Source: Patescibacteria group bacterium | GTDB taxonomy: Bacteria > Patescibacteriota > Patescibacteriia > UBA2591 > UBA6264 | Assembly (NCBI GenBank): GCA_021735685.1 | Contig: JAIPGN010000004.1 | Coordinates: 959 to 64,958, forward strand | Length of the DNA stretch: 64,000 bases | Reading direction: 5' to 3' | Shown here: in pieces, positions 6,384-22,245 of the stretch | Layout: the number at the start of each line of letters is the position of its first letter | How positions within the stretch are numbered: the first letter of the stretch is position 1 | Position numbers and translations under genes: made by a program | Notes under the pieces: generated by a model | Told to the model about the DNA's origin: nothing | The model's input: the letters and a program-made list of their open reading frames with translations, nothing else | The model's database searches: none

Positions 6384-6474
6384 ATTAATGTAGATTGATA
6401 ATAAATATTAACAAAAAAGAGTACAATAAATATGGCTAAATCATAGTCAACGCTAAACCCCTTCTCTAAAAAAT

Positions 6475-6499
6475 ATGTACGAGGTTCGACCTCGTACAT
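6475..6499. repeat. 25-bp perfect palindrome ATGTACGAGGT-TCG-ACCTCGTACAT (copy 1 of 3)
   Basis: Read directly from the sequence: 11-bp stem, 3-nt loop, intergenic. Confidence 0.9.
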
Positions 6500-6526
6500 T
6501 TACCCCTAAAACATCTTAACCAAGCG

Positions 6527-6551
6527 ATGTACGAGGTTCGACCTCGTACAT
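6527..6551. repeat. 25-bp perfect palindrome ATGTACGAGGTTCGACCTCGTACAT (copy 2 of 3)
   Basis: Identical to the copy at 6475 and lies 27 bp downstream of it. The flanks TTACCCCTAA and TTAGGGGATA are also inverted relative to each other. Confidence 0.9.
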
Positions 6552-6573
6552 TAGGGGATAGATAAAACAAAAA

Positions 6574-6596
6574 AACCGCCCTAAAGACGGTCTTTT
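6574..6596 (-). terminator. Rho-independent terminator for csp (usable in both directions)
   Basis: ACCGCC-ctaaa-GACGGT hairpin with an A-run on one side and a T-run on the other. Confidence 0.5.
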
Positions 6597-6618
6597 TGTT
6601 TTTATAGAAAAAGTGTTG

Positions 6619-6816
6619 CTAAGCTTTTTTAACTTGTGTAGCCGCAGGTCCTTTTGGGGTTTCATTAACCTCAAAAGTAACAGCGTCACCTTCTCTTAAG
6701 TCACTGAAATCGCAATCAACCAATTCGCTGGCGTGAAAGAATAAATCTTTCTCGCTACCTTCTTGGGTGATAAAACCGAAGTTTTTATCAGTCAACTTTT
6801 TGACGGTTCCTTCCAT
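6619..6816 (-). CDS. cspA: Cold-shock protein (CspA family)
   Basis: 65 aa; GTVKKLTDKNFGFITQEGSEKDLFFH is the cold-shock-domain RNP motif region. Confidence 0.9.
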   Translation of the reverse strand: MEGTVKKLTDKNFGFITQEGSEKDLFFHASELVDCDFSDLREGDAVTFEVNETPKGPAATQVKKA

Positions 6817-7018
6817 AGTTTGAAATTATAATAAATTAACTTGTAGTAATAGATAGAAATTCGACTCTATTCCTACACTTACTAGCTAGTATTAGATTTT
6901 AAAAAAAAGATCTAATATGTTTTATATTATAAACTATTTTTCTTTTTTGTCAAATTGAAAAGAGTGGACAGAAGTGTATTTTTTTGCTATGCTTGAAAAA
7001 TAATAACTTCTAACGACT

Positions 7019-8386
7019 TTGGTTTTTATGAAAAGTGAAAAAATTGGTGCCCAAGTTGCCGATATTTTAATACCTCGCTCGGATTTAAATTTTTATAAAT
7101 GGGCGGTAGTGGCCTGTGATCAATATACTTCTCAGCCTGAGTATTGGAAAGAGGTGGATGGTTTAGTAGGAGAGGATTATTCAACCTTGCGCTTGGTTCT
7201 GCCAGAAGTTTATTTACAGGAGAAGAAAGAGAAAAAAGAAAAAAGAATTGAAAGCATTAATCAAGCCATGGAAGCATATTTAAAAAAGGGCGTTCTGGTT
7301 GAAAAAAAGTCAGCCATGATTTATTTGGATCGTCAAACTTCGCAAAATGACTCTCGTCAAGGACTGGTTTTGGCTGTAGATTTGGAAAAATATGATTATA
7401 CTCGCGGTTCTCAAACTTTAATTAGGGCTACAGAGGGAACAATTCTAGATCGCATTCCTCCTCGTTTACAGGTTCGGGAAAAAGCTTCAATTGAATTACC
7501 ACATATTATGTTATTAATTGATGATCCTGAAGAAACGGTGATTGAGTCCTTATCTCAAAAAATCGATGAATTGGAAAAAATATATGACACAGACTTAATG
7601 ATGAAGGGAGGTCATTTAACTGGTTATTTGATTCAAAGAGAGGGGGTTATCGATCAAATTATAAAGGGTTTTGAGAAATTGATTGATCCTGATGTTTTTT
7701 TAAAAAAATATGAGGTTGATCCTCGAAAGTACAAACCTTTGCTTTTTGCTACTGGTGATGGCAATCATTCTTTGGCTACGGCTAAAGCTCATTGGGATAA
7801 TGTTAAGAAAAATCTAAACAAGAAAGAGAAAGAAAGTCACCCAGCTCGTTTAGCTCTAGTGGAAGTTGTCAATGTTCATGATCAAGGATTAGAGTTTGAG
7901 CCCATTCATCGAGTTCTTTTTCATGTTCAGCCCAATGAGATGATTAAAGATATGCAACTTTATTTCACAAAGCAAGGATTAGAAAACAAGATTATACTCA
8001 CTGACTCCTTAGTAGAAACAAAAGAGAGGTTAAGAGAATTAAACCAAGAGAATCGTCATTTGTTGGCTTTTCAATTTCAGGATCAGCATGGAATTCTAGT
8101 AATTAATGAACCTGTCTTTAATTTGTCGGTAGCTACTTTACAAGATTATTTAGATAGATTTTTAAAACAAAATTCAGAAAGCGAAATAGATTATGTTCAT
8201 GGCGAAGAAATTGTCAATAATTTAAGTTCAAAAAAGGGAAATATTGGTTTTTATCTACCAGCTATGGACAAAAATGATTTGTTTAAAACTGTTATTTTAG
8301 ATGGTTCCTTGCCTCGTAAAACTTTTTCTATGGGTGAGGCTGAAGAAAAAAGATTTTATTTTGAGGCTCGTAAAATTATTAAATAA
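7019..8386 (+). CDS. Conserved hypothetical protein, DUF1015-like
   Basis: An N-terminal KWAVVACDQYTS motif and a later GDGNHSLATAKA motif resemble the DUF1015 signatures (PPYDVIS... and ADGHHR), recalled from memory. Confidence 0.45.
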   Translation: MVFMKSEKIGAQVADILIPRSDLNFYKWAVVACDQYTSQPEYWKEVDGLVGEDYSTLRLVLPEVYLQEKKEKKEKRIESINQAMEAYLKKGVLVEKKSAMIYLDRQTSQNDSRQGLVLAVDLEKYDYTRGSQTLIRATEGTILDRIPPRLQVREKASIELPHIMLLIDDPEETVIESLSQKIDELEKIYDTDLMMKGGHLTGYLIQREGVIDQIIKGFEKLIDPDVFLKKYEVDPRKYKPLLFATGDGNHSLATAKAHWDNVKKNLNKKEKESHPARLALVEVVNVHDQGLEFEPIHRVLFHVQPNEMIKDMQLYFTKQGLENKIILTDSLVETKERLRELNQENRHLLAFQFQDQHGILVINEPVFNLSVATLQDYLDRFLKQNSESEIDYVHGEEIVNNLSSKKGNIGFYLPAMDKNDLFKTVILDGSLPRKTFSMGEAEEKRFYFEARKIIK

Positions 8387-8399
8387 TCCAAAAAATAAA

Positions 8400-9323
8400 A
8401 TGAATTCATTTGAAAATAAACAAAAAGATTCGTCAGAGAAAAAAGAGAAAATTTCTCAAACAGAAAGCAGGGAAGGGCTGATTGATTCTGCTCGTCAAAA
8501 AACCGAAAAACTGATTAAGGAATTGGAGAATAAGGTTTTTTCAGATTTTTTAGAAAAGAAAAGTCAGATTTCTTTTGAAGACTTGACTGATCAAATTTTA
8601 GAAACTGTTAATTTTATCCAAAGAACTAAAATTGGTTTAACTGGCGAAAAGGCAGAGAAAGAAATAGAGAGAGAAGAAGAAAAGGAAAATTCTCAAAAAA
8701 TTATTCTTTCTATTTTTCGGCACGACATTGGCAACAAATTAGCGGCCTTGTTCTCGGCAGTTAATCTTCTTAGGCTAGGAGACAAAGAATATGATCAAAA
8801 ATTCATTTTTCAAGATATGAGAAGTCAAATTCAGCAAATAAGAAATCTTTTGAATGAAGTGGAAAAATTAGAAAAAAGCATAGCTTCCGGAGAATTTATT
8901 CTCCAAGATGTTGAAAAGGTGTCTAAAGATATTCAGGAAGCTTACGATGATTTAAAAATTGAAATTAATCAAGAGCGTTATAAGAGAAGTTTAATTAAAA
9001 CGAATTTTTCTTTTTACTTAATTTTAGATAATATTGTGGCTAATGCAATTCGTCACGGTAAGGCCTCAGAAATAGATATTAAAATTAAAGAAGAGGAGGA
9101 TTTTATTTTGGTGGAGATAGAAAATAATGGCACTAAACTAAAAGAGGGGATTGCGGAAAAAATATTTGAAAAAGGCTTTAAAGACGAAAAAACTGGTAAT
9201 AGTGGTTTAGGTTTAACCTTAGTGCGAGAAAATATTGAAAAAAATCAGGGAAAGATTTGGGCAGAAAATACAGAAAAGGGAGTGAAGTTTATTATTAAAT
9301 TTCCTTTATTAGAGAGAGCTTAA
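8400..9323 (+). CDS. Sensor histidine kinase, soluble, with no TM segment
   Basis: H-box HDIGNKLAAL and a HATPase_c domain with N-box NAIRHG and G-boxes GNSGLGL. I chose the ATG at 8400 because the track start at 8301 overlaps the upstream gene by 86 nt. Confidence 0.6.
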   Translation: MNSFENKQKDSSEKKEKISQTESREGLIDSARQKTEKLIKELENKVFSDFLEKKSQISFEDLTDQILETVNFIQRTKIGLTGEKAEKEIEREEEKENSQKIILSIFRHDIGNKLAALFSAVNLLRLGDKEYDQKFIFQDMRSQIQQIRNLLNEVEKLEKSIASGEFILQDVEKVSKDIQEAYDDLKIEINQERYKRSLIKTNFSFYLILDNIVANAIRHGKASEIDIKIKEEEDFILVEIENNGTKLKEGIAEKIFEKGFKDEKTGNSGLGLTLVRENIEKNQGKIWAENTEKGVKFIIKFPLLERA

Positions 9324-9328
9324 AAATT

Positions 9329-9699
9329 AGGGGACAGTCCCCGTATTTTCCTCTTTCAAACCCCGCTTTCCAAGCGACTTTCCAGCTCATTTTTTCAATT
9401 TGGCGAAAAAATGGGCTTTTTGCTTTTTTAGTTATTTTTCTTTGGGAGCAGGGAAACAGCAGACAGAGAAGAAGCAATCTTCCAAAGAGCCAAGACTTTG
9501 TTTCGCCCCTTTCAGGCAAGGGCTCCCTGCCTGTCGGCAGGCAGGGCAATGACAGCAAAAAATTTGCCGGGCTACTGAAATTAGTAGGGGAGGGCTGAAC
9601 GTTTAAAAATAAGCTGATTTTTCGCCATTTTGGATTTTTGCTCTTGTTTTCTGCTTGGAGAGCTGGTTTTGAGAGCTTGCTTGAGGGGGACTGTCCCCT
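9329..9699 (+). mobile_element. MITE-like structured repeat, copy A (~370 bp), with 14-bp terminal inverted repeats AGGGGACAGTCCCC / GGGGACTGTCCCCT
   Basis: It begins ...AGGGGACAGTCCCC and ends GGGGACTGTCCCCTT. Sub-terminal segments are mutually complementary (TGGCGAAAAA / TTTTTCGCCA, CCAAGC / GCTTGG). There is an internal GC hairpin CCCTGCCTG-tcgg-CAGGCAGGG. A second copy lies at 11657-12001. Confidence 0.6.
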
Positions 9700-9826
9700 T
9701 AATTAAAAGAGTAGACTAGAATAAGGAAAATTAAACAAATACAATAGATGCATAAAAACATAGTTTGAATCTGTGTTTTTTTGCTTTTTACATCTTATTT
9801 AGGTTTGCCCTCGACATTTTTTTAGG

Positions 9827-9857
9827 TTGACAAAGGAGCTAGAATTTGCTATTCTAG
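9827..9857 (+). promoter_or_regulatory. Sigma70-like promoter (TTGACA-17-TATTCT) overlapped by the palindrome CTAGAAT-ttgct-ATTCTAG, a candidate operator
   Basis: -35 at 9827-9832, -10 at 9850-9855, palindrome at 9839-9857. A strong AGGAGG RBS lies 7 nt before the ATG at 9902. Confidence 0.45.
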
Positions 9858-9901
9858 AGCTATAAGTTCTTTAAAAAAAGAAAAAAAGAAAGGAGGATAA
9901 A

Positions 9902-10318
9902 ATGAAAAATATATTTTTCATTTTACTCGTAGTATTTTTTGTCTTTGCTTCCGCTGTGGAAGTAGAGGCAGAAAATGTTTTTTCTTCTGAGGTCGTTTAC
10001 GGCCCAGAAGAAATCCAGGGATCCCTCTCTTGGGATTACTTGGGGGCGGGGTGGCTTGCCCACTTAGGAGCCAAAACCGAGGGAGAACTATCCCTTGGTT
10101 TGGGGATTAATCTCCCAGAACTTGAATTTTTTGATTACAATAGCTTTGAGGCTATTATGGTCAATTTTCAAGCCGCCGGAGGCCTCGTCTTTGTAAAAGA
10201 CGGGGTAGCAGAAGATTACTTTTTTATCTACCCAGTCGTTCAGATAAGCGACTGGGAGGAAAGAATTTTTTTCCGAAGCGAGCAAGTGGCTCGCTTTACT
10301 AAAGAAAGTTTTGGTTGA
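9902..10318 (+). CDS. Small secreted protein (hypothetical)
   Basis: Signal peptide MKNIFFILLVVFFVFASAVEVEA. GC-richer than neighbours, with C-ending codons. Strong RBS. Confidence 0.55.
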   Translation: MKNIFFILLVVFFVFASAVEVEAENVFSSEVVYGPEEIQGSLSWDYLGAGWLAHLGAKTEGELSLGLGINLPELEFFDYNSFEAIMVNFQAAGGLVFVKDGVAEDYFFIYPVVQISDWEERIFFRSEQVARFTKESFG

Positions 10319-10551
10319 TGGGATACCACTAACCAAGTTTTCTTTAATCATGAGGATCATTCTTTTGGATTGTTTTGTCAGACTCATCATAACGGCAAGT
10401 TTTCATTTTCTTTTTTTGGGCCCCTTTATAAGAACAGGGTGTCTAAAAAAATTACGATCGAGGTCTTTCTCGGTATTAATCCCGAGAAAGAAAAAATGGG
10501 GGGAGCGAGATTTAATCTCGTTGTTCCTTAGAACTTAGAAAATCATTTTTT

Positions 10552-10585
10552 AGCTCAGGAAAAATTTCCTGAGCTAATTTTTTTG
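10552..10585 (+). terminator. Rho-independent terminator
   Basis: AGCTCAGGA-aaaattt-TCCTGAGCT followed by TAATTTTTTT. Confidence 0.5.
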
Positions 10586-10689
10586 CTTTTGTGTTTTTAT
10601 TCTGTCAATAATTTATGACAATAAAGAATATGTAAAACCCCTTAAAATAAAGATAAAACTATATTAAATAATAATACTTACAATAGCCC

Positions 10690-10718
10690 TTGACAAAAAC
10701 TAATAATTCTGCTATATT
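10690..10718 (+). promoter_or_regulatory. Sigma70-like promoter TTGACA-17-TATATT
   Basis: -35 at 10690-10695 and -10 at 10713-10718, 48 nt upstream of the RBS-supported ATG at 10766. Confidence 0.5.
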
Positions 10719-10765
10719 TTTAATATCAATGTTCTTTGAAAAAAAATGTCAAGGAGGACAAAAAA

Positions 10766-11629
10766 ATGAAAGAACGAACATTAAGAGATTTAGCCAAATC
10801 TCCCAAAATCGGAGATTTCTTGGCCAGAGAAAAAGAAATCAAGTCTTGGCCAGATTGCTGGTTTGATCCTAACGACCAATCAAAGATGAAAATCTTTACA
10901 AAAAAGGTAGAAACTGATTTACCGGCTTTTGTTCAAAAGATCAAAGAAAAAGGCAGTTTGTCTTTGGATGATATCAGGACAAACCGTGGTGAAGTTCAAG
11001 AAGAAATCAGGGAAGTAACTCAAGATTTAACCCTACTGAAGAAATATGTAGGAATGTCTTATTTCTTTCTGAAAAACAAAATTCCTTTCCCAACAATGTT
11101 ACACAAAGACAAAAAGGAGTCGGGATTGGTGTTTAGCTTTTCTTTAGAGGGCCAGTTTTATAACTGGGACGAAGAAATTGCTTTACTTCACCCTTTTATC
11201 CTTTCTACATGGAAAGGTCCAATAGATTGGCCTTGGGCGGCAAAATGTCGTTGGTTGCAAGGCGTTGGAGATTGGTTATTGATCATTGATCGTTATCTAG
11301 AAAAAGAAAAACAAGGAAATTCTTTCAAGAAAAAACTCCTTTCTTTATTGGGAGTTGATCAAAAAGTTAGAGAAATTATGGACAGAGCTAAGATGAATTT
11401 GGCGGAATTGAAAGCAGTCTTAGGCATCAATGATTTCTTCAAAAATGCTTCTCTGATCGAAAGAATTTGGGCTTCGGTAAGTGGTTCTGATTCTTCTAAA
11501 GTCAGCTTTAACGACAAAGCTCTGTGCGTAATTAAATATTACGGCGGAGCCAGTGATGAAAGAGGATGGGATGTACGCGTGGATCGTTCCACTCTCCATC
11601 TTTTCTATAATTTAAGGGGTTGCCAATAA
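10766..11629 (+). CDS. Hypothetical protein. I preferred the ATG at 10766, which has a perfect AAGGAGG RBS.
   Basis: The track ORF (10736-11629) starts at TTG. The internal ATG at 10766 sits 7 nt after AAGGAGGA. No family recognised; Trp-rich. Confidence 0.55.
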   Translation: MKERTLRDLAKSPKIGDFLAREKEIKSWPDCWFDPNDQSKMKIFTKKVETDLPAFVQKIKEKGSLSLDDIRTNRGEVQEEIREVTQDLTLLKKYVGMSYFFLKNKIPFPTMLHKDKKESGLVFSFSLEGQFYNWDEEIALLHPFILSTWKGPIDWPWAAKCRWLQGVGDWLLIIDRYLEKEKQGNSFKKKLLSLLGVDQKVREIMDRAKMNLAELKAVLGINDFFKNASLIERIWASVSGSDSSKVSFNDKALCVIKYYGGASDERGWDVRVDRSTLHLFYNLRGCQ

Positions 11630-11656
11630 TTTTTTATTAATTAAACAATTAAATCC

Positions 11657-12001
11657 AAGGGGACAGTCCCCGTATTTTTCCCTTTCAAGATTCGCTTTCC
11701 AAGCGACTTTCCAATCCATTTTTTCAATTTGGCGAAAAAATGGGTTTTTTGTTTTTTTGAGTTATTTTTTTTGATAGCAAGGAAACAGCAGAAAGGAAAG
11801 AAGTAATCTTGCAAAGAGCCGAGATTGCTTTGCCCTTATCAGGCAAGGGCAAAGATAGTAATAAATTTACTAAGCCACGGGAATTATTTAAAGGAATGAA
11901 TATTCGAAAACAAGCTGTTTTTTCGCCATTTTGGATTTTTGCTCTTGTTTTCTGCTTGGAGAGCGGGTTTTGAGAGCTTGCTTGAGGGGGACTGTCCCCT
12001 T
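11657..12001 (+). mobile_element. MITE-like structured repeat, copy B (~345 bp)
   Basis: Same terminal and sub-terminal sequences as the copy at 9329-9699 (AAGGGGACAGTCCCC ... GGGGACTGTCCCCTT). The central ~80 bp differ. Confidence 0.6.
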
Positions 12002-12050
12002 GGATAAGAAAGTTTTACTTTTGTTGATAATTTAGTATATTAAAGGAGAT

Positions 12051-12416
12051 ATGTTTAGTTTTAAAAATTTGCAAAAAAGTTTCCAGTCGGCCTTTAAAGG
12101 ATTATCAATTGCTTTTAAGGAGGAACAAACCTTTAGGATCCAGGCCAGTATTGGTTTGGTGGTTTTATTTTTAACCTTTTTTTTGGCTTTAAGAAGTTGG
12201 GAAAAGGTAGTTTTGATTTTATTGATTATTTCAGTTCTAGGTCTAGAATTAATTAATTCTCAGATTGAGAGGATTTTGGACTTTACTCATTTAGGCTTTC
12301 ACCCTAAAATTAAAAGAATTAAGGACCTTTCTGCAGCTGCAGTTTTGGTGGTTTCTTTGGGGGCAGCCTTAGGCGGAGTTTTTATTTTATTGCCTCCTTT
12401 GTTGGCTCTTTTTTAA
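12051..12416 (+). CDS. dgkA: Diacylglycerol kinase / undecaprenol kinase family (DgkA-like)
   Basis: 121 aa, three TM segments, motif GLELINSQIERILD matching the prokaryotic DAGK signature E(L)xNSAIExxxD. Confidence 0.7.
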   Translation: MFSFKNLQKSFQSAFKGLSIAFKEEQTFRIQASIGLVVLFLTFFLALRSWEKVVLILLIISVLGLELINSQIERILDFTHLGFHPKIKRIKDLSAAAVLVVSLGAALGGVFILLPPLLALF

Positions 12417-12507
12417 AAAATTACTCTTTCCTTTTTTTCTCTGCTAATAAGCAGAGATTTTTGTTTACAATTTATTTTTTTTTGGTAAAATAAAGAAAAG
12501 TAAGTTT

Positions 12508-13302
12508 ATGAAAAAACCAAAGATTATTACAATTTGTAATCGTAAAGGAGGTACTGGCAAGACTAGTGTGGCCATTAACTTGGCCGCTTATTTATCTCGT
12601 CTAGGGCACAAGGTTTTATTAATTGATTTAGATCCTCAGTCTAATGCTACTTCGGGCTTAGGCGTTGACAATCGACGTTCTGGTATTTACGAAGTTTTGA
12701 GTGGAGATGCCTCTTTTCAAGAGATAATAATGGCTGCTCGAGGTAATCTTTGGCTAGCCCCAGCCAGCGAAAATTTAGCTGGAGCAGAAGTAGAGATTGT
12801 GGGACGGGAGAATCGGGAATCAATTTTAAGAAAATCTATTAATTCTTTTATTGAAAAACAAGAAATAGATATTGATTTTATTTTAATTGACACCGCTCCT
12901 TCTTTAAGTTTGATTACTATCAACAGCTTGGTGGCCGCTGATCAGATTTTGATTCCCGTGCAAACTGAGTATTTTGCTTTAGAGGGTTTAACTCAGCTTT
13001 GCAAAACTATTGATTTGGTTAAAGAGGGCCTTCAGCCAAATTTAAGTATTTTAGGGGCAGTTTTAACTATGTATGATGGTCGCAATAAACTTTCTTCAGA
13101 AATTTGGCAAGAGCTGTATCGTCATTTTCCTTATTACATCTTTCGTACTGTAATTCCTCGTAATGTTCGTTTGGCTGAAGCTCCTAGTTATGGGCAAAGC
13201 GTTTTAGAATACGCTCCTCGTTCCCGAGGAGCTAAAGCCTTTCATCGTTTAGCTAAAGAATTTTTAGCCCTTAGTCTTAATAATAAGATTAATCATGCCT
13301 AA
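12508..13302 (+). CDS. parA: Chromosome-partitioning ATPase ParA/Soj
   Basis: Deviant Walker A KGGTGKTS, then LIDLDPQSNATSGLG; 264 aa. Confidence 0.9.
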   Translation: MKKPKIITICNRKGGTGKTSVAINLAAYLSRLGHKVLLIDLDPQSNATSGLGVDNRRSGIYEVLSGDASFQEIIMAARGNLWLAPASENLAGAEVEIVGRENRESILRKSINSFIEKQEIDIDFILIDTAPSLSLITINSLVAADQILIPVQTEYFALEGLTQLCKTIDLVKEGLQPNLSILGAVLTMYDGRNKLSSEIWQELYRHFPYYIFRTVIPRNVRLAEAPSYGQSVLEYAPRSRGAKAFHRLAKEFLALSLNNKINHA

Positions 13303-13729
13303 GTATTTAATTTCCTTTTTTGTTTTAGTTTTGATTCTTGTTGTTTTTTGGTTTGGCGTGGTCAAAAAAGAAAAAGAAATAGTTCGTTTTCAGAATTATT
13401 ATTTTGAAGTAGAGTTGGCTCAAAATTATTGGCAAAGGGCGAAGGGACTGATGTTTAAAAAAGATATGGAAGAAAATCAAGGAATGCTTTTTGTTTTTCC
13501 CAAATCCGGATTATATAATTTTTGGATGAAAAATGTAAAATTTCCCTTGGATCTTATTTGGATTGATCAAGAGAAAAAAATTGTGGATTTAAAATTACAA
13601 CAACAACCTTGTTTAAGTAATCCTTGCTCAGCTATTAAACCGAAGGCTAAGGCACGATATGTTTTAGAGCTCAAAGGAGGAATGGCTAGTAAGACGGGGA
13701 TGACCGTTGGTTCTCAGCTAGAATTTTAA
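13295..13729 (+). CDS. DUF192-family protein with an N-terminal TM segment
   Basis: MFKKDMEENQGMLFVFPKSGLYNFWMKNVKFPLDLIWID matches the DUF192 (COG1430) core. The start ATGCCTAA overlaps the parA stop. Confidence 0.6.
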   Translation: MPKYLISFFVLVLILVVFWFGVVKKEKEIVRFQNYYFEVELAQNYWQRAKGLMFKKDMEENQGMLFVFPKSGLYNFWMKNVKFPLDLIWIDQEKKIVDLKLQQQPCLSNPCSAIKPKAKARYVLELKGGMASKTGMTVGSQLEF

Positions 13730-13793
13730 AATTAGCTTTTAGGTAAAAAAATGTTATAATAAAAGATAGAAAAAAATAAATTAAAATAAATTT

Positions 13794-14648
13794 ATGTCTT
13801 TAGGTAGGGGATTAGAGTCTTTAATTCCAGTTTCAAGTATTAAGAAAGTTAGCGATCAGGGTTTAAGTCAAACCAAAGAAGAGGTTTGTGATGTTTTGGT
13901 TAATCAAATTGAGGCCAATCCTGATCAACCCCGTAAAAGCTTTCAAAGAACTAATATGGAAGAGTTGATTAATTCCATTCAAGCGCATGGCATTATCCAG
14001 CCTTTAATTCTAAGTAAAAAAGAAGGAGGTAAGTATGAAATTATTGCCGGAGAAAGACGTTGGCGCTCTGCTAAAATTTTAAATTTAAAAACAGTTCCAG
14101 CTTTAATTCGTCCCATTGATTATAATAAAAAATTGGAAATATCTTTGATTGAAAACATTCAAAGAAAAGACCTTAATGCTATGGAAAAGGCAAAGGCTTA
14201 TCAAAGATTAATGGATGAGTTTAATTTAACTCAAGAAAAAATATCGGAAAGGTTGGGCTTGGCTCGAGCTACAGTAGCCAATGCCTTGCGTTTATTAAGA
14301 TTGCCTCAAATAATTCAAGAAGCCATTGAACAGGAAAAGATTAGTGAGGGTCATGCTAAAATTCTTTGTTCTTTTGATAGCGCAGAGAAGCAAAAAGCTT
14401 TTCTTAAGAGAATATTGGGATTAGGTTTAACGGTGCGCGAAACTGATCAGATGGCTAAAGCAAAGAAATTTAAAAAAAAGAAGATAATGCTCAATCCAGA
14501 ATTAGAGGAGAGAGAAAAGAAGTTGTCGCAATTTTTAGGCACTAAAGTTAAAATAAAAAAGAGTCAATCTAAAATTAAAGTATTAATAGAGGTTTACAAA
14601 TTAGAGGATTTAGATATAATAATTAAAAAGATAAAAGCAGATAATTAA
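13794..14648 (+). CDS. parB: Chromosome-partitioning protein ParB/Spo0J
   Basis: GLGRGLESLIP start, ParB box IIAGERRWRSAKI, and an HTH region. Confidence 0.9.
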   Translation: MSLGRGLESLIPVSSIKKVSDQGLSQTKEEVCDVLVNQIEANPDQPRKSFQRTNMEELINSIQAHGIIQPLILSKKEGGKYEIIAGERRWRSAKILNLKTVPALIRPIDYNKKLEISLIENIQRKDLNAMEKAKAYQRLMDEFNLTQEKISERLGLARATVANALRLLRLPQIIQEAIEQEKISEGHAKILCSFDSAEKQKAFLKRILGLGLTVRETDQMAKAKKFKKKKIMLNPELEEREKKLSQFLGTKVKIKKSQSKIKVLIEVYKLEDLDIIIKKIKADN

Positions 14649-14671
14649 GTTAAATTTGAGATTTATAGTTT

Positions 14672-14890
14672 ATGGCTATTGAAGTTAAAAGAAAACAAAA
14701 AGAAGCGTTAAATGTTTTTTTGCGTCGTTTTTCAGAAAGAGTAAAGCGTAGCGGAATTATTAATGATTTTAAAAAGTCAAAATTTTATCTTAAGCCTAAA
14801 AGCAAAAATTTAAAAAGAAAAAGCGCTTTAGAAAGAAAAAAGAAATCTGAAAAAATGAAATTTTTGAAAAAGGTGGGTAAAGCGAAATAA
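14672..14890 (+). CDS. rpsU: 30S ribosomal protein S21
   Basis: 72-aa basic protein; N-terminus MAIEVKRKQKEALNVFLRRFSERVKRSGI resembles the S21 N-terminal signature; lysine-rich tail. Confidence 0.7.
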   Translation: MAIEVKRKQKEALNVFLRRFSERVKRSGIINDFKKSKFYLKPKSKNLKRKSALERKKKSEKMKFLKKVGKAK

Positions 14891-14907
14891 AAAATTTATC
14901 AAAAAAT

Positions 14908-17900
14908 ATGTTTTTTTCAAAAAATAAAATCAGTTTAATTGTTTTTCTGATTATTTTGCCTATATTTTTTTTATTTATCCTTGCTCCGCTTTCAGCGCAA
15001 GATTTGGGTTCAGGAATAGTAGAAGAAGCGGGAAGTAGTGCCGGTTTAGGAGAAGGTAGTTTGCCAATTGTTTTAGGAAAAATTTTTAAAATAGTTTTAA
15101 GTGTTTTGGGTTTAGTTGCTTTAATTCTTGCTATTGTTGCTGGAGTTCAATGGATGACCTCTGGTGGTAATTCTGAAAAAATAAAAAAAGCGAAAGCCCT
15201 TTTGTCAGCAGCCTTAATTGGTCTGCTGATTATTATTTTAGCTTATGCTTTGGTTAGTTTTATAGTTAATAAATTAACTGGAGTTAGCGGGGGGGGAGGA
15301 GGATGTACGCCAGGCTCGTGTTGTGCAGATGGATTGCGATGCGATGAGAATGGTCAATGCACAATTGCTGATCTTGCCTGTAGCACCACTTTCCCTTCTG
15401 AGAATTTTCTTTTGTCTCGTGGTGAAGCTAATTTTGACGCAAACAATCAAGTTTATTTATGTAGTAATATTAGGGCTGTTTTTAATCATAATATAAAATC
15501 TAATACAGTTAGTGCTGCCCTTAATGCCGATGCTTTGAAGGTGGTGGACACAGATGATAATGACACAGTAGAAGGAGAATGGCAGGTGGCGGGTAAATTT
15601 ATTACTTTTACACCTGATGAATTTTGGGAAGAAAACACGAGTTATGAAATGGTGATTCCTTTAACGATTAGTGACAGCAATAATAAATATTTAAGTGGTT
15701 GTTCGGCCGGTTTTTTGCCTAATGGCAATTGCGCGAGTTTAGCTTCGCAAGTAAAATGGTCTTTCTTGACTAATGATCAGCCTGATGATATTTCTCCCTT
15801 TATTAAGAATTCTTATCCAGTTAAAGATTTAACTACTCCTGATCGTAATGTTTCGCGAGCGCCAGTTTTAGAAATTATTTTTAATGAAAATATAGATTAC
15901 ACGACTATTATTGACACAAATCATGTAGATTATGACGCAGATGATCAAAGCACTTGGCATCCAATAGCAGGTAATTTTCAATTATGCAAAATAGCGAATC
16001 AGAGTACTGAATGTGTTGTTGGGAATGAATACAATAACGATAATCTCAAAGTTTCTTTAACTTCACAGGGTTTTCGCATTTCTTTACTGAATGCTCAATG
16101 GCTAGAGGCTTTTGGGTGGTACGAAATTAAAGTGGATGGGATTGAAGATATGTGTGGCAATGTTATGGAACAATCCGAGGCTTGGACTTTCCAGGCCAAT
16201 GATAGTGTGCCCGGAGTGCAAGAGTGGTGGCCGCAAGGCAATAATGTTTGTCCAGACGCGCCCATTGGTTTACGTTTCGGAACCAGTATGTATGAACAGG
16301 AGGTGTCGGTGGAAGTAATTAATACTGTAACCAATGCTATTGAATTTGCGGGATCCATAAAACCTTCTAATTTTCCCGCTGGTGGTGATTACAGGTCAAA
16401 TTTAACCACTGGTAATGGTTCTTTGCTAGTAATGGATGATAATGATGATGAAATTTCTAATCAATTTAAAATATTTCAATTAGAGTTAAATTCGAATCTA
16501 ACTAATGATAGCGAATACACAATTGAGATTAATACCGACTTAATAATTGATGTTGATAACAATACCTTAGGTAAAGATTGGAGTTTTGAGGTTACTAATC
16601 TGCAAGATTGTGCTTGCGCTCCCATTATTTATCAAACTCTCCCAGCTCAGGGACCGCGAGGCTCTTGCGTCACTGTCACTGGCTATTGTTTTAATGGGAC
16701 GCTAGAGAGACCAGCAACAATTAATGGTTTTTGGTTTGACGATGGTGATAATCCAGATGGAGAAATATCTGCTGAAATCATGAGCTCAACTTCCAATTCT
16801 TTAACCACTGTAATTCCGGCGGATTTTGGAGAGCCAATTGATGATGTTCCTGATGAATTAAGCGAAAGAATTAAAATAGTTTATGAAGATAATGGCGAGG
16901 AAGTAAATATTCCTTCGGCTAATCAATTTACTGTTATTAGCAATCAGTTGGCTCAAGGTCCTTGTATCTGGCGCTTGGCTCCAAACCAAGGTAAGGTAAG
17001 TACTAATTTTGAAATAAAAGGCATTCGTTTAGGTTCAGAAGAAGGAAATAATTATGTAGGGATGAATTCTTGGGCTGATCATTTAAATATTGAGGGGGCT
17101 TGGACCAATGAAGAAATTGATCAAGTAGTGGTTCCAGCTTTCAGCACGGCTGGAGAAAGGGATGTGAAGGTAGCTGTTTTTAATGAGGCAGAGGGTAATT
17201 ATTTATTCAGCAATCCCGCTCCTTTTGATGTTATCTTTGATCAACCCGAGGTTAGAGAATTTGGTTGCAACCCGCCCCCTAATTATTCCTCTCCCAGTCC
17301 TTACAAAAATACGCAAGACGCTTGCACGGGTATTGATTTAATGGTGGAATTTACTAAAAACATGAAAGCATATGGAGCTAATGGTGTTTTGAATGTCGCT
17401 AATTACACCATTCGAAATTGTGGAAGCGAAGAGAATTATAACCCGGCAGATTGTAGCAGTATTTATTATTCTCCCACTAATGCTAATTTTTATGACAGTT
17501 CTCAAAATATAGTTCAACTTTCTTTAGCTTCTTCTTTATCCACTAATACTTGGTATCAGGTCAGCATTCAAGGCAATGTTCGCTCTCAAGAAGAAGTGGC
17601 TATGGGAGAAGATTATATTTGGCATTTCAAAACTCGAGACAATGATCTTTGTCCGGTAGCTCAAATAGATTTAACTCCTCAAAATAGTATGATTACTGGT
17701 TGTTCGGGGAGCCAACAATATACAGCTCAGCCCGTGGCCAGTAATTGTAATTTTTTAACGGCGAGTAATTATACTTATTCTTGGCTTTCTTCTCAAACAG
17801 AAGTAGCTACTGTTGGATCTGGCCAAAATTATCAAAATACAGCTCAAGCCATTGGTGGTGGTTATGCTTGGATTAAAGTCACAGAAGATGATTCTCAAAA

Positions 17901-20900
17901 ATGGACTCGAGAAAAGTTAACAGTTAATTGTTGTTCAAGCGATCAGGATTGTTATGATCCAGATGACGATAGCACTAATCGATGCGCAGGAAGTATTTGT
18001 GATGACACTTATGGAATTTGTACGCCAATAATTAATGATTTTAGCCCTTCAGCTGGAGATCTTGAAGATTGGGTAACTATTAATGGTTGTTGGTTTAATA
18101 ATTATAACCAAAGTTATAGTCAGGTTAGCTTTAACGAAGAAGTTGCTTCTATTCCTTTTGACCGCTGCACTAATTCAGCCTGGCAAAATGAGCAAATTAT
18201 TGCTGAAGTTCCGGCTGAGCAAGGGAACCCTTTTGGAAAGATTCAGGTTGTTTCCGCTCCCTATGGTATTAATTTTGAAGTTTTGTCAGATAGTAATTTT
18301 TTAGAAGGTGATTCTTATGTGGGAATTTGTAATTTAAGGCCAGACCACGGCCCGACTGGTTTAATTACCGCTTTAACCACTAATGATAATTTAGCTCCTA
18401 GAGTGGGCCAAGATGCTGTTCATTATGGCAATCAAAGAGCGATGGCTTATCCAGAGCCTGGTTGGAGTGTGGCCTTTAAAGAAATTCGTTCTCAATCTCC
18501 AACAACTTTGCCTTTAGGGGAAATTTTAGTGAAAGTTAAGCAAGGCGGCCTTGATAGTAATTATTTGTCTTTTAATGTTGATCCAACTGGAGGTCAACCG
18601 GGAGATTTATGCATTGAAGGCTGTGGTCCTCTTTGTGATCTTGGCGCTCAGTTTTGTGAAAATCCTTATTTTTGTTTGCAACGTACCAGTGGCACTTGCC
18701 AAGATTGTCGTTGCTGTTGCCAAATTAGTGATCCAGAATCTTGTGGCACTGAATTAGAGTGTTTGGCTGGACAGGGTAATTGTACTGGAACGGAAAGGGG
18801 ACTTTGTTGTGGTTGTGAAAATGATGTTCAATGCGGAAGTGCTGGTTGTGGATTTTTAGATTCTAATCGTTGTTGCTATGCGCATCCCAGCGCAGTTTTT
18901 AATGCTTGTTCAGCTACTGATTTTCCTCAATTGGTTGGTCTTAACGCTTCTTTTGCTTTAAGCTTTGATCAACCAATGGATCGAAACCGAATGAATAACG
19001 ATTATATTAAAATTTCTAAAGCTGGACTTTGCGGAAATGACTCAGGGGAATATGACCAAGACCAGGGGAGATGTTATTTAGAAGGAGACATAGTTAGCGT
19101 TAATTCTGAAAATAATAATTCTACTGTTTTTTATCCTGATTCCTGCCGTTTAAGCACGAATCAAGAATATAAATTGGAATTCATAAAAGGCGAGAATGGT
19201 GCGGGGATTAGGTCTTTTCAGGGGGTTTCGGCTACAGCCATTGGAACCGAAGCTTGTTCTTGGGATAATTCTTTGTCTTGCGCTAATTTTGTGATTGATA
19301 CGGCCACTCAAGAGCAAGGTGGTTTTTGTGCAATAGAAACTATTAATGTTGAGCCCCGCGATTTTATAATTAAAGGATTAAATAATACGCATAATTTTTT
19401 AGCTTTAGCTTTGGACGAAGATGATAGTCCGGTTTGCGTGTCTGGCTTTGATTGGGAAAGTGAGAATCAAAGTATAGCAGCTGTTCAGCCAACTTTAGGA
19501 TTAGGGACAACGGCTCGCTCCATTAATTATGGAGAAACTTTTATCAAGGCTAGTGCTGAAGGAATAAGCTGTAGTTTAAGTGGAGATCCTTATACTTGTA
19601 CCAAACTAAAAGTTACGCCTACGGATTTACCTCAGGTGGTTGAGCAACAGAGCTGTGAAATTTGTGATTTGGGAGGTCAGTCTCCTTCGCCTTGGAAAGA
19701 TTCAGAGGAAAATTGCCCGAATGCTCAAATAGTTGTTCGTTTTAATCGTTTCTTAGAGCTAACCACTATTAACGTTAGTAATATTTTGGTTAAAGAATTT
19801 AATCCTAATACTCAGACTTATGAAGATTTTGATTATCAATCTTTAGATAAAATTAACGAAAATTCAGAAACCATTATTTACATTGATGGACCATTAAGCG
19901 CTGACAAAAATTATCAAGTTATTTTAAAAAGTGGATTATCTAATGAGGTTGGCGGTTTAAAAGATTTAAGCGGTTTACCCTTAGATGGTAATAAAAATAA
20001 TATTCAAGATGCCTCTCCTTTAGATGATTATGTCTGGGAATTTAGCACTGGTGCAACCAATTGTGTTTTGAATCAAGTTTGCGTTAATCCTCGCCAAACC
20101 ACTCAAATTAATCATCCCGGAAATCAAGTTTATTATACTGACACTTATGCTTCTAATTGTAATTATTTAGAGGCTAGTAATTTTAACGGGAATTACGTCT
20201 GGGCCTTGATCAATCAGCAACCAGCTAATCCCTCACAAGAAGTAGCAGAATTTATTTCCAGCATTGATGATTGGCAATCAGAGTTGAGCTCAAAGCATTT
20301 AGGAGAGGCTGATGTTGAAGTTAGTATTAATTCTCATCCTCAAATCAATGATAATGGCCATTTAATTGTAACTACGGTTCCGAACATAGAGTCTAGTTTG
20401 CCACAAGGAAATGAAGTTTGTCGTAATAGCATTATTCAAATTGGTTTTGATCAAGTCATGGAAGACGATTCTTTAAATGCTGATAATTTAGAAGTTTGGA
20501 GAAAATATAATAGCGCCCAGACTGGTCTGAATTGCGAAGGTAACTGTGATGAGGTTCCTCCTGTTGGTAGCAATTATCCACAAAACTTTTTGGCTAGTTT
20601 ATATTATAAAATTAAAAATATTTTTTATCCTCAGGCAGAAGCAGCTCAATTTCCTTCTGAAGATTGTTGGTGTCAATGGCCGCTTTCGGGCATTTCTTCG
20701 AGCATAGATGAGAATAATAAAAGTTTAGCTCGTCTTGATGCTGGTTTATTAAACGGAGAAGCTCAATATAAAGTGGTAATTAAAAGTGGAGTAGAGAGTC
20801 AATATGGAATTGATTTAGGATTAAATGATGAATGGCAATTTACTACTGGAGAATTATGTGAATTAACAAGAGTGGAAATTAGCCCTAGGGATGTTTATTT

Positions 20901-22245
20901 TAATAGTGCTGGTCTTTTAGAGAATTTAGAGGCGCAAGCCTTTGACGATCAGGGTAATGAAATTTTTGGAGTAAATGGTTATGATTGGGATTGGGGTTGG
21001 CAATCATCTCAACAAACTGTTGTAAATGTTAACTCGGTTGCCGGAGAACCAGAAAAAGCGGAAATTATTTCAGGTAGACAAGAGGGTATCTCTGAAATTG
21101 TGGCTACAGCTCAGTTGAATGTAGGAGGAGAGCCTACTAACACTTTAGTTGATGATCAAATTTCAGCACGAGTCTCTATTTGTGAATATCCATGGGTTTA
21201 TTTTGATGGAGGGGGGGGCGAAGGAACCAATTTTAATTTATTTTATTGTCGCGATCAAGAGCCTCTCTTGCCAAAATTACTTTATAAGGGAGGAGAAGTG
21301 AGTCCTAGTGGCTGTGGAAATGGTATTTTGCAACCCCCTGAGGCTTGTGATCTTTATGTTGGGGTTCCGTCTCATGCTACTTGTTCTTTTAATTGTTTGA
21401 GCTGGGAATGTAACGCGGGTTATTACAAAGAAAACAATATATGTCTTCCTAATATTCCCTTAGCTCCCTCTAATCTAGAAGTTGAAGTTGATAGTGATTT
21501 TCCCGGAAGTCGACTTAATTTAACTTGGAATGATAATTCTGTTAACGAAGAATTTTTTAAGATTGAAAGAAAGTCTAGGGCTTCTAATTGGCAGTTAGTG
21601 GATGAAGTAGGAGCCAATATTACTTCTTATGTCGATTCTGATTTAGATCCAGCCACTAAATATTATTATCGAGTTCGAGCCGGAAATACTTCAGGTAATT
21701 CCTCCTATACTACGGAAAGTTGGGCAATTACCCTTTGTTTAAATAATCAATGTTATTTTAACCAAGCTTGCTATAACTCTGAGCAATGTCAACCTAATTC
21801 TACCCAAATGTGCTTAAATGGCGAATGGATAAATTCTTGCGGAGATGGAATTTTAAATTGTAATGAAATTTGCGATGGGGTTATTGGAAGTATTCCCGGA
21901 AATAATACTCATTGTCAAAATGATTGTTTAAACTGGATTTGTGATGTTGGCTATGGTGATTGTGACGGAAATTCTTCTAACGGATGTGAAATTAATTTAT
22001 TAAATAACAATAGTCATTGCGGAGAATGTAATCAACCTTGTGGCGCTAATCAAAGTTGTGAAAACGGCATTTGTGTTTGTGAAAACAATTATGGTGATTG
22101 TGACGGAAATTCTTCTAACGGATGTGAAATTAATTTATTAAATAACAATAGTCATTGCGGAGAATGTAATCATCAATGTTCTGATACTGATGAATGTGAA
22201 TTTGGGCATTGTGTCGAAATAGCCCCCGCCCCCCCAACTGATTAA
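14908..22245 (+). CDS. Giant (2445-aa) cell-surface protein. The N-terminal double-TM region resembles a type IV secretion pilin (VirB2/TrbC-like). It continues into Ig-like regions, Myxococcus-type CGDG...CD cysteine-rich repeats, one FN3 domain, and C-terminal GDCDGN..NGCE..HCGEC repeats.
   Basis: Single long ORF. The N-terminus VQWMTSGGNSEKIKKAKALLSAALIGLLIIILAYALVSFIV matches the ...YMTSAGNPEKVSKAKK..IGLIIIL.AY motif of T4SS pilins (from memory). FN3: LNLTWNDNS...YYYRVRAGNTSG. Cys repeats: CGNGILQPPEACD, CGDGILNCNEICDG. Confidence 0.85.
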   Translation: MFFSKNKISLIVFLIILPIFFLFILAPLSAQDLGSGIVEEAGSSAGLGEGSLPIVLGKIFKIVLSVLGLVALILAIVAGVQWMTSGGNSEKIKKAKALLSAALIGLLIIILAYALVSFIVNKLTGVSGGGGGCTPGSCCADGLRCDENGQCTIADLACSTTFPSENFLLSRGEANFDANNQVYLCSNIRAVFNHNIKSNTVSAALNADALKVVDTDDNDTVEGEWQVAGKFITFTPDEFWEENTSYEMVIPLTISDSNNKYLSGCSAGFLPNGNCASLASQVKWSFLTNDQPDDISPFIKNSYPVKDLTTPDRNVSRAPVLEIIFNENIDYTTIIDTNHVDYDADDQSTWHPIAGNFQLCKIANQSTECVVGNEYNNDNLKVSLTSQGFRISLLNAQWLEAFGWYEIKVDGIEDMCGNVMEQSEAWTFQANDSVPGVQEWWPQGNNVCPDAPIGLRFGTSMYEQEVSVEVINTVTNAIEFAGSIKPSNFPAGGDYRSNLTTGNGSLLVMDDNDDEISNQFKIFQLELNSNLTNDSEYTIEINTDLIIDVDNNTLGKDWSFEVTNLQDCACAPIIYQTLPAQGPRGSCVTVTGYCFNGTLERPATINGFWFDDGDNPDGEISAEIMSSTSNSLTTVIPADFGEPIDDVPDELSERIKIVYEDNGEEVNIPSANQFTVISNQLAQGPCIWRLAPNQGKVSTNFEIKGIRLGSEEGNNYVGMNSWADHLNIEGAWTNEEIDQVVVPAFSTAGERDVKVAVFNEAEGNYLFSNPAPFDVIFDQPEVREFGCNPPPNYSSPSPYKNTQDACTGIDLMVEFTKNMKAYGANGVLNVANYTIRNCGSEENYNPADCSSIYYSPTNANFYDSSQNIVQLSLASSLSTNTWYQVSIQGNVRSQEEVAMGEDYIWHFKTRDNDLCPVAQIDLTPQNSMITGCSGSQQYTAQPVASNCNFLTASNYTYSWLSSQTEVATVGSGQNYQNTAQAIGGGYAWIKVTEDDSQKWTREKLTVNCCSSDQDCYDPDDDSTNRCAGSICDDTYGICTPIINDFSPSAGDLEDWVTINGCWFNNYNQSYSQVSFNEEVASIPFDRCTNSAWQNEQIIAEVPAEQGNPFGKIQVVSAPYGINFEVLSDSNFLEGDSYVGICNLRPDHGPTGLITALTTNDNLAPRVGQDAVHYGNQRAMAYPEPGWSVAFKEIRSQSPTTLPLGEILVKVKQGGLDSNYLSFNVDPTGGQPGDLCIEGCGPLCDLGAQFCENPYFCLQRTSGTCQDCRCCCQISDPESCGTELECLAGQGNCTGTERGLCCGCENDVQCGSAGCGFLDSNRCCYAHPSAVFNACSATDFPQLVGLNASFALSFDQPMDRNRMNNDYIKISKAGLCGNDSGEYDQDQGRCYLEGDIVSVNSENNNSTVFYPDSCRLSTNQEYKLEFIKGENGAGIRSFQGVSATAIGTEACSWDNSLSCANFVIDTATQEQGGFCAIETINVEPRDFIIKGLNNTHNFLALALDEDDSPVCVSGFDWESENQSIAAVQPTLGLGTTARSINYGETFIKASAEGISCSLSGDPYTCTKLKVTPTDLPQVVEQQSCEICDLGGQSPSPWKDSEENCPNAQIVVRFNRFLELTTINVSNILVKEFNPNTQTYEDFDYQSLDKINENSETIIYIDGPLSADKNYQVILKSGLSNEVGGLKDLSGLPLDGNKNNIQDASPLDDYVWEFSTGATNCVLNQVCVNPRQTTQINHPGNQVYYTDTYASNCNYLEASNFNGNYVWALINQQPANPSQEVAEFISSIDDWQSELSSKHLGEADVEVSINSHPQINDNGHLIVTTVPNIESSLPQGNEVCRNSIIQIGFDQVMEDDSLNADNLEVWRKYNSAQTGLNCEGNCDEVPPVGSNYPQNFLASLYYKIKNIFYPQAEAAQFPSEDCWCQWPLSGISSSIDENNKSLARLDAGLLNGEAQYKVVIKSGVESQYGIDLGLNDEWQFTTGELCELTRVEISPRDVYFNSAGLLENLEAQAFDDQGNEIFGVNGYDWDWGWQSSQQTVVNVNSVAGEPEKAEIISGRQEGISEIVATAQLNVGGEPTNTLVDDQISARVSICEYPWVYFDGGGGEGTNFNLFYCRDQEPLLPKLLYKGGEVSPSGCGNGILQPPEACDLYVGVPSHATCSFNCLSWECNAGYYKENNICLPNIPLAPSNLEVEVDSDFPGSRLNLTWNDNSVNEEFFKIERKSRASNWQLVDEVGANITSYVDSDLDPATKYYYRVRAGNTSGNSSYTTESWAITLCLNNQCYFNQACYNSEQCQPNSTQMCLNGEWINSCGDGILNCNEICDGVIGSIPGNNTHCQNDCLNWICDVGYGDCDGNSSNGCEINLLNNNSHCGECNQPCGANQSCENGICVCENNYGDCDGNSSNGCEINLLNNNSHCGECNHQCSDTDECEFGHCVEIAPAPPTD
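21952..22170 (+). repeat. Perfect 81-bp tandem duplication with a 138-bp period (copies at 21952-22032 and 22090-22170), inside the giant gene
   Basis: The identical string TATGGTGATTGTGACGGAAATTCTTCTAACGGATGTGAAATTAATTTATTAAATAACAATAGTCATTGCGGAGAATGTAAT occurs twice. Each copy encodes YGDCDGNSSNGCEINLLNNNSHCGECN. Confidence 0.9.

Follow-up and report, generated by a model that had tools for sequence, protein, structure and literature searches.

The spacer between a histidine kinase (HK) gene and dgkA, in a 64-kb chromosomal stretch of a low-GC (33.8%) Patescibacteria metagenome-assembled genome (MAG), holds two direct copies of a non-coding repeat of ~350 bp in the same orientation, here termed A and B. 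The whole 64-kb stretch is referred to as the window, and all positions are those of the window; two genes, gene 1 and gene 2, lie between the copies. A and B may be read as old and by now diverged copies of one foldback element, non-autonomous and built as a very large unit resembling a REPIN, a hairpin-forming pair of inverted repetitive extragenic palindromic (REP) sequences, or a miniature inverted-repeat transposable element (MITE). Our confidence in this reading stands at an even balance because only two copies are known, no transposase was seen, the spacer between the palindromes exceeds that of known REPINs 3-10 times in length and coverage of the source genome ended with the window. 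The anatomy of the copies, the pattern of insertions and deletions (indels) among relatives, the exact end points of a deletion in a sister species and a link between the terminal palindrome and RAYT (REP-associated tyrosine transposase) genes in other phyla were established directly. The initial annotation had also proposed a non-autonomous mobile element, and this is still the best reading of sequences that are non-coding, terminally inverted, hairpin-forming and present as discrete indels relative to relatives.

Anatomy of the two copies

Nearly all genes around A and B lie on the + strand, and dgkA starts at 12051. The features of the two copies are as follows.

9329-9700, + strand: copy A, 372 nt, beginning 5 nt past the HK stop codon (stop at 9323)
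9330-9342, no strand: left terminal palindrome of A, GGGGACAGTCCCC, centre A; the one retained in the sister species
9384-9427, + strand: terminator-like hairpin and T-run in the 5′ arm of A (hairpin 9384-9417 followed by TTTTGCTTTT), with a 13-bp stem and an 8-nt loop
9525-9546, + strand: GC-rich central hairpin CCCTGCCTG-TCGG-CAGGCAGGG, in A only, where it takes up 23-26 nt of the alignment with B
9619-9700 (A) and 11920-12001 (B), + strand: shared 3′ block, 82 nt with one difference
9686-9698, no strand: right terminal palindrome of A, GGGGACTGTCCCC, centre T, that is, in inverted orientation
11657-12001, + strand: copy B, 345 nt, preceded by 45 nt of ancestral spacer and followed by the region upstream of dgkA
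11659-11671, no strand: left terminal palindrome of B, centre A
11713-11757, + strand: terminator-like hairpin and T-run in the 5′ arm of B (hairpin 11713-11746 followed by TTTTGTTTTT), conserved relative to A
11987-11999, no strand: right terminal palindrome of B, centre T, with right flank TTGGATAA

The same-orientation pair described in the initial annotation was recovered by a repeat search, which matched 9320-9495 to 11649-11824 (176 nt, 83% identity) and 9591-9712 to 11892-12013 (122 nt, 89% identity), and by a MAFFT alignment with a mean column identity of 88%. The copies are put at 84-88% identity as a whole. Identity is uneven along the element: the first 100 nt agree at 89%, the centre drops to 69-78% and the last 82 nt reach 98.8%. 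The copies had been described as filling the entire intergenic space; in fact, A takes up 64% and B 82% of its spacer. No open reading frame (ORF) common to both was found when A and B were compared, and there is no third copy within the 64-kb window.

Each copy has GGGGACAGTCCCC as its left boundary and GGGGACTGTCCCC as its right one. The 13-nt palindrome GGGGACWGTCCCC within these ends occurs exactly four times in the window, against an expectation of 0.04, and all four occurrences are element ends. Its centre base is A at the left ends (GGGGAC-A-GTCCCC) and T at the right ends (GGGGAC-T-GTCCCC) of both copies. The terminal inverted repeats, previously put at 14-19 bp, are perfect over 14-15 nt in A and over 19 nt in B; if the latter (ATCCAAGGGGACAGTCCCC) are counted in full, B extends to 11653-12005. 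Past the palindrome, the two ends (GTATTTTCCTCT vs CTCAAGCAAGCT) are dissimilar over a further ~12 nt. No convincing target-site duplication of fixed length was found. A has a possible 3-bp TTA/TTA, the flanks of B (CCAA/TTGG) are inverted rather than direct, and the block as a whole is flanked by TTA/TTG. The lack of a duplication is as expected for Y1/HUH transposition, and we count it in favour of the REPIN-like reading.

The near-identity of the 82-nt 3′ block may reflect either sequence constraint or a gene-conversion tract. Direct repeats of the TTGAG(A/G)G type also recur three times in this block, at intervals of 13 nt (TTGGAGAGC, TTTGAGAGC and TTGAGGGGG), and with these it could be either a gene-conversion tract or a protein-binding site.

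An assembly artefact was rejected as far as this is testable. Three independent Logan contigs from SRR12088349 show no difference from the window (L043 to 6472-9647, L001 to 9671-11948 and L002 to 11972-21981), and these k=31 contigs break only inside the shared 3′ block (9647-9671 and 11948-11972), the join across which rests on the MAG assembly. From the Logan contigs alone another join would be possible, in which HK, one hybrid element and dgkA are accompanied by a 2.3-kb circle carrying gene 1, gene 2 and an element. The order seen in the window is favoured by the NCBI contig and by synteny with an outgroup (below).

Gain and loss at the HK-dgkA locus in relatives

The loci of relatives were reached through a protein search with HK, which gave three useful sets. 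In a sister species, represented by eight contigs from JGI and Logan (L023-L030), amino acid identity to the window is 88% for HK, 96% for dgkA and 90% for ParB. HK is followed directly by dgkA in 8/8 of these contigs, across an 89-nt spacer that reads ...TTAAAAATTA GGGGACAGTCCCC TTGGATAA..., which is the left flank of A, one centre-A palindrome and the right flank of B, base-exact. The same TTGGATAA thus stands to the right of the rightmost palindrome of B and of the single palindrome of the sister species. The sister species has therefore lost the stretch that begins immediately past the leftmost palindrome and includes the rightmost one, and keeps a single palindrome. The deletion could have come about either through an enzyme acting on two hairpins of like orientation or through slippage between the 13-nt repeats, aided by the complementary arms.

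The second set is an outgroup (L031; HK identity 69%), in which HK, a 206-aa gene and dgkA follow one another without repeats and without the palindrome. This 206-aa gene is orthologous to gene 1, with 59% identity along its full length, and has the same promoter and terminator. A blastn comparison of the window with this locus returned four blocks, namely 9210-9326 (the end of HK), 9826-10615 (gene 1 with promoter and terminator), 11608-11652 (a 45-nt spacer) and 12051-12116 (the start of dgkA). By this alignment the window differs from the outgroup by three separate indels: A, a ~1-kb piece with gene 2 on it, and B. Ancestral spacer lies between the three. The initial annotation had suggested a search for empty sites in related strains. 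In the outgroup A and B are missing as clean indels, whereas gene 1 is present; the sister species lacks the whole block.

At third positions the window and the sister species are 66-86% identical, comparable to the divergence of A from B, which suggests that the duplication is about as old as the species split. This fits the presence of both copies in the common ancestor and a later loss of the block by the sister species. Within this lineage the HK-dgkA spacer is a variable region, a hot spot at which sequence is gained and lost.

More distant relatives have other sequences downstream of HK. In L039 an rve-type transposase gene stands immediately after the HK orthologue (L039:3193-4287), and in L040:2287-7199 and L041:2273-7185 there are ~5 kb of unrelated genes (DUF5320, thioredoxin, Fe-S ParA-like and cation efflux).

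In the history that we propose, each copy would have entered the AT-rich HK-dgkA spacer separately and in the same orientation, as judged from a single outgroup, at points 5 nt (A) and 27 nt (B) past the stop codon of the preceding gene. The copies would probably have been moved as single-strand hairpins by a Y1 (RAYT/IS200-type) enzyme encoded elsewhere, and would not themselves be movers of the genes between them. Each may now provide a terminator-like hairpin behind the preceding gene. The sister species would then have lost the block and been left with its single palindrome, whether by transposase-catalysed excision between hairpins or by replication slippage helped by the inverted arms.

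Folding of the arms and a possible role as RNA

Two inverted REP-type palindromes enclose a spacer of 315-343 nt in each copy, and the outer ~100 nt on either side form arms that are colinear inverted repeats of one another, so that one DNA strand or RNA copy would fold as a long hairpin. The mutual complementarity of the shared arms, already remarked on in the initial annotation, follows one pattern in all four; GGGGACAGTCCCC-N26-CCAAGC-N25-GGCGAAAA matches every arm and nothing else in the window. The arms are only ~60-65% complementary, whereas all four terminal palindromes are perfect. Both copies form much more stable folds than their dinucleotide shuffles, with z = -4.7 for A and z = -10.2 for B. 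Divergent GC-rich central hairpins had been described for both copies. The centres have indeed diverged, and the GC-rich hairpin is found in A and not in B. A spacer that is poorly conserved in sequence and yet seems to have retained its pairing counts for the REPIN-like reading.

The same folds could belong to a locally duplicated structured RNA or cis-regulatory module that was never mobile, either a 3′-UTR/terminator-insulator or a paralogous pair of non-coding RNAs. Both copies lie just 3′ of a stop codon in sense orientation. The + strand folds 17-36 kcal/mol more stably than the - strand, with arm pairing biased towards G.T (12-13) over A.C (2-3), and the RNAalifold consensus keeps 109/109 pairs in both copies, with 3 compensatory and 18 wobble-preserving changes. 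The contrast between a 3′ block at 98.8% identity and a centre at 69-78% could likewise be counted for this alternative. However, with two sequences only and a structure derived from those same sequences, the covariation is not significant (52/500 shuffles reach the observed level), and the substitution rate between A and B is equal in paired (15.5%) and unpaired (16%) columns. When the minimum free energy fold of one copy is imposed on the other, 19 of 31-34 changed pairs still pair and 12-15 break, which is more than the third or so that neutral change should leave paired. Searches against Rfam 15 gave no match at the gathering score anywhere in the window, and at E<10 only chance-level matches in 9250-12100, none meaningfully over the elements. 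No promoter is evident. Moreover, the element is absent from both the sister species and the outgroup, and the outgroup keeps gene 1 without it. The strand-biased pairing would also fit a hairpin used on one strand. We consider a structured-RNA role unproven and an origin as an immobile RNA module unlikely.

The terminator-like hairpin bears on the same point. In the 5′ arm of both copies a GC-containing hairpin is followed by a T-run on the sense strand, 3′ of a gene, and between A and B the stem carries one compensatory change from G-C to A-U. These hairpins are predicted to resemble intrinsic terminators of the upstream genes, HK for A and gene 2 for B. Their conservation sits well with a 3′-UTR module. 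If working, however, a terminator at element positions ~56-100, some 60-100 nt into the element, would halt transcription before the 3′ arm, which argues against a full-length RNA and for a hairpin at the DNA level.

The terminal palindrome in other phyla

We scanned 185,579 species genomes, a set from which the source genome is absent, for both termini 314-344 nt apart. The scan returned 20 loci (L003-L022) from Firmicutes, Actinomycetota, Planctomycetota, Verrucomicrobiota, Betaproteobacteria, Kiritimatiellia and Saccharibacteria; as these loci were chosen by this palindrome, they give a biased picture of how widely it recurs. Between the termini they show no relation to A and B. Many of the loci are densely populated with GGGGACWGTCCCC as a REP-like repeat, several of them carrying 7-21 copies within 8 kb, and centre-A and centre-T palindromes often form doublets 31-50 nt apart, which is the REPIN layout.

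Among 73 ORFs scanned from palindrome-bearing loci, PF01797 (Y1_Tnp) was found twice, where a rough estimate of the chance expectation in ~140 kb is ~0.07. One gene, from a Lachnospiraceae isolate (L003:4528-5271), has palindrome doublets on both sides; the other, from a Verrucomicrobia MAG (L009:1-747), adjoins four palindromes. Both proteins are ~250 aa long with HUH and Tyr motifs and are RAYT-like. The adjacency of the palindrome to RAYT-like genes is informative despite the selection of the loci.

Several further observations were made at these loci. Outside the window GGGGACWGTCCCC often forms the core of longer perfect palindromes of 19 nt, whose outer bases are specific to the lineage (e.g. 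L003:4453-5431, L009:1-1137 and L017:843-2120). In L009 the palindrome also occurs twice within the RAYT-like ORF. A Saccharibacteria MAG (CAZWYU010000043.1, L018:3885-4228) contains a 344-nt AT-rich foldback bounded by the same palindrome, lying between divergent genes, with arms complementary over most of its length (fold z = -9.7) and -10-like boxes in both arms. A comparison of this foldback with the window elements by nhmmer gave no sequence homology.

On this basis, GGGGACWGTCCCC might be a hairpin signal of Y1/RAYT-type enzymes across at least 8 phyla, and the window and Saccharibacteria elements might be a 'giant REPIN' persisting in streamlined bacteria of the candidate phyla radiation (CPR), maybe co-opted as a terminator or insulator. 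We offer this broader proposal as a speculative one that is probably wrong. If it were true, REP/RAYT specificity would be conserved or exchanged between phyla, rather than lineage-specific and vertically inherited.

Comparison with known repeat families

In a REPIN, two inverted REPs carry centre bases that mark their orientation and the spacer is conserved only as a hairpin (PMC3337134). Described spacers are 34-110 nt long, an AA/TT centre marks orientation in Pseudomonas REPINs, and excision of the centre of a REP doublet leaves one long palindromic singlet (PMC3337134). Mobilisation is by a single-copy RAYT Y1 transposase (Bertels & Rainey 2011, PMC3116915; PMC3337134; PMC5581495). A and B are alike in several respects. 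They are bounded by inverted, near-perfect palindromes whose A/T centre marks orientation, their hairpin-forming spacer is less conserved than the identical termini, and they are non-coding, intergenic and without target duplication. Moreover, the single palindrome of the sister species corresponds to the singlet left by loss of the centre, and an identical palindrome flanks RAYT-like genes in two other phyla (L003 and L009). They differ in number, with two copies seen in 64 kb as opposed to the tens to hundreds of REPINs, and in that a cognate PF01797 RAYT flanked by the same REP was found neither in the window nor in related CPR loci. The small-genome Patescibacteria host also lies outside the Proteobacteria, in which REPIN populations have mainly been characterised.

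Other families offer partial parallels. IS200/IS605 elements and their non-autonomous derivatives (PATEs) have ends that are recognised as hairpins on one DNA strand, make no duplications and are excised seamlessly. However, their hairpins are sub-terminal and non-identical and they lack terminal inverted repeats, whereas the ends of A and B are inverted copies of one palindrome. In precise excision of the Tn10/Tn5 type, slippage deletes the sequence between short direct repeats drawn together by inverted repeats, with no transposase involved. The 13-nt palindromes of A and B repeat one another in both direct and inverted orientation, and the 5′ arm of A has its complement in the 3′ arm of B; such slippage would account for the loss in the sister species only and not for the origin of two copies. 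Correia/CREE elements of Neisseria, ERIC/IRU elements of enterobacteria and RUP/BOX elements of pneumococcus are 100-200 bp long, with tens to hundreds of copies and defined target duplications (TA for Correia). Bacterial MITEs, once transcribed, fold into long hairpins and often supply terminators or promoters. A and B share with them small size, non-coding inverted repeats, an intergenic position and polymorphism between relatives, and differ in their length of 345-372 bp, their copy number of two and the lack of a clear duplication. The sites attC, dif and parS and Tn3-type ends were also considered and dismissed, as the terminal sequences do not fit.

A classical MITE, that is, a deletion derivative of an insertion sequence, with a DDE transposase cutting and pasting it at its 14-19-bp terminal inverted repeats, would explain the perfect termini of a small, non-coding, intergenic element that is present or absent between relatives. 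The possible TTA duplication around A points the same way, and the rve-type transposase gene next to the HK orthologue in L039 indicates that insertion sequences do visit this spacer. B, by contrast, has no target-site duplication, the ends are dissimilar for ~12 nt past the palindrome, and each terminus is in itself palindromic, a typical trait of REPs and not of DDE inverted repeats. No insertion sequence sharing these ends was found in any scan, and the ends of the L039 element are unrelated and without the palindrome. A DDE-type MITE is therefore rather improbable.

Evidence weighing against a REPIN-like element

Several results weigh against reading A and B as REPIN-like. One is copy number, the known copies being two, 2.3 kb apart, at one locus, which leaves their status as a 'family' unproven. 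Further copies were absent from viral contigs in five scans, from JGI metagenomes (including the sister species) searched with the arm-word pattern (0 matches), and from plasmids and phages searched by distant-mode blastn. A chimeric six-frame 'protein' of the conserved arms, used as a DNA proxy, had no match among 5.8e9 proteins. The initial annotation had seen no transposase in the window, and this agrees with a domain scan of window ORFs, which turned up no transposase domain; the ORFs upstream of 5751 were covered only through the precomputed Pfam labels of their L023 orthologues. Neither a RAYT (PF01797) nor any other transposase was found in related CPR loci. The spacer, at 315-343 nt, exceeds the described 34-110 nt by 3-10 times. 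The two RAYT-like proteins of L003 and L009 are only ~18% identical to each other, and the recurrence of the palindrome may in part be coincidence, the loci having been selected by it. Lastly, the polarity of the insertions and deletions relative to L031 depends on one outgroup, and the excess of G.T pairs could come in part from the strong GC/AT skew of the + strand.

Three further searches were also negative. A metagenome scan with a GGCGAAAA/TTTTCGCC pattern gave 5 matches, all by chance; ORFs of the elements themselves are not in the collection of 5.8e9 proteins; and an nhmmer profile of A and B matched only the window's own contigs among all 43 fetched loci.

The genes between the copies

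The interval between A and B contains two further features, which are context and not part of the element.

9902-10531, + strand: gene 1, a secreted small protein, with a promoter at 9827-9855 and a terminator at 10550-10577
10616-11606, + strand: ~1-kb indel relative to the outgroup, comprising the promoter of gene 2 and the initial ~282 codons of the gene (its ORF is 10766-11629)

Gene 1 had been annotated as ending at 10318. The codon at 10316-10318 is an in-frame TGA where the outgroup has TGG, and the frame stays open for 71 more codons to a TAG at 10531. Gene 1 is thus likely to be either a recent nonsense mutant or read through, and not a gene for a 138-aa protein. Recoding of UGA was ruled out, as two very large ORFs in the window (2445 and 1032 aa) are open under code 11 and the orthologue has TGG.

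The indel that carries gene 2 is bounded by ATAATTTA at 10608-10615 and 11607-11614; this 8-mer occurs 19 times in the window, so the bounding match is weak evidence by itself. An exhaustive phmmer search found 12 remote homologues of gene 2 (P0122-P0133, 395-589 aa), of which the window protein matches the N-terminal ~290 aa only. The homology ends at ~11605-11611, where homology to the outgroup spacer resumes, and gene 2 accordingly looks like the 5′ fragment of a larger, uncharacterised family whose members gave no Pfam domain. Gene 2 was also considered as a hidden transposase and rejected; it had no Pfam, PHROG or NCBIfam match, and its AF2 model, a confident one (pLDDT 82), had no PDB match at E<1.

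The enclosed genes had been described as GC-richer than their surroundings. Against 42 ORFs, this is true of third codon positions, with a GC content (GC3) of 0.41 (z = +5.0) and a C content (C3) of 0.22 (z = +4.6) in gene 1 and a GC3 of 0.35 (z = +3.2) in gene 2. It is not true of bulk composition, which is 0.354 GC in 9701-11656 vs 0.338 in the whole window. The gene 1 orthologue in the outgroup has a GC3 of 0.46 and a C3 of 0.25. Because it shows the bias without the repeats, the high GC3 and C3 belong to gene 1 and not to an import bounded by repeats. The codon bias of gene 1 is possibly linked to expression, the window's cold-shock gene having a similar C3 of 0.24.

These data bear on the suggestion in the initial annotation that A and B might delimit a mobilised, compositionally distinct cassette. 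A composite unit in which the two together move the genes between them is very improbable: the precise absence of the block from the sister species, whose outer flanks are joined across one palindrome, and the atypical GC3 and C3 would agree with it, but gene 1 stands with its promoter and terminator at the same locus of the outgroup, with the same bias and no repeats, its divergence (59% aa identity) is in line with vertical descent beside HK (69%), A, the gene 2 fragment and B are set apart by ancestral spacer, no duplication surrounds the block and the bias may be expression-linked. Rather, the A-B interval would consist of an ancestral gene, now a nonsense mutant, and a gene fragment, and not of a mobilised unit.

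Elsewhere in the window, the two very large ORFs lie at 14908-22245 (2445 aa), whose L023 orthologue is labelled T4SS-pilin and Big_5 by Pfam, and 22282-25380 (1032 aa). A homologue of the RuBisCO large subunit (34437-35702) adjoins an IF-2B-family gene (33502-34422, Pfam IF-2B). No tRNA genes were found in the 64-kb window.

Implications

Repeats are rare in the ~1-Mb genomes of Patescibacteria, and we found no literature on MITEs or REPINs in this group. For annotation, the genes between A and B would not be a foreign cassette, gene 1 being a probable nonsense mutant and gene 2 a probable 5′ fragment. If A and B are of REPIN type, the reach of REP/RAYT biology would widen to include CPR bacteria and elements of far greater size, and the locus would be a natural example of precise loss leaving a single palindrome. 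The more surprising lead is that the same REP-like palindrome lies near RAYT-like genes in distant phyla and ends ~350-nt foldbacks in two CPR lineages.

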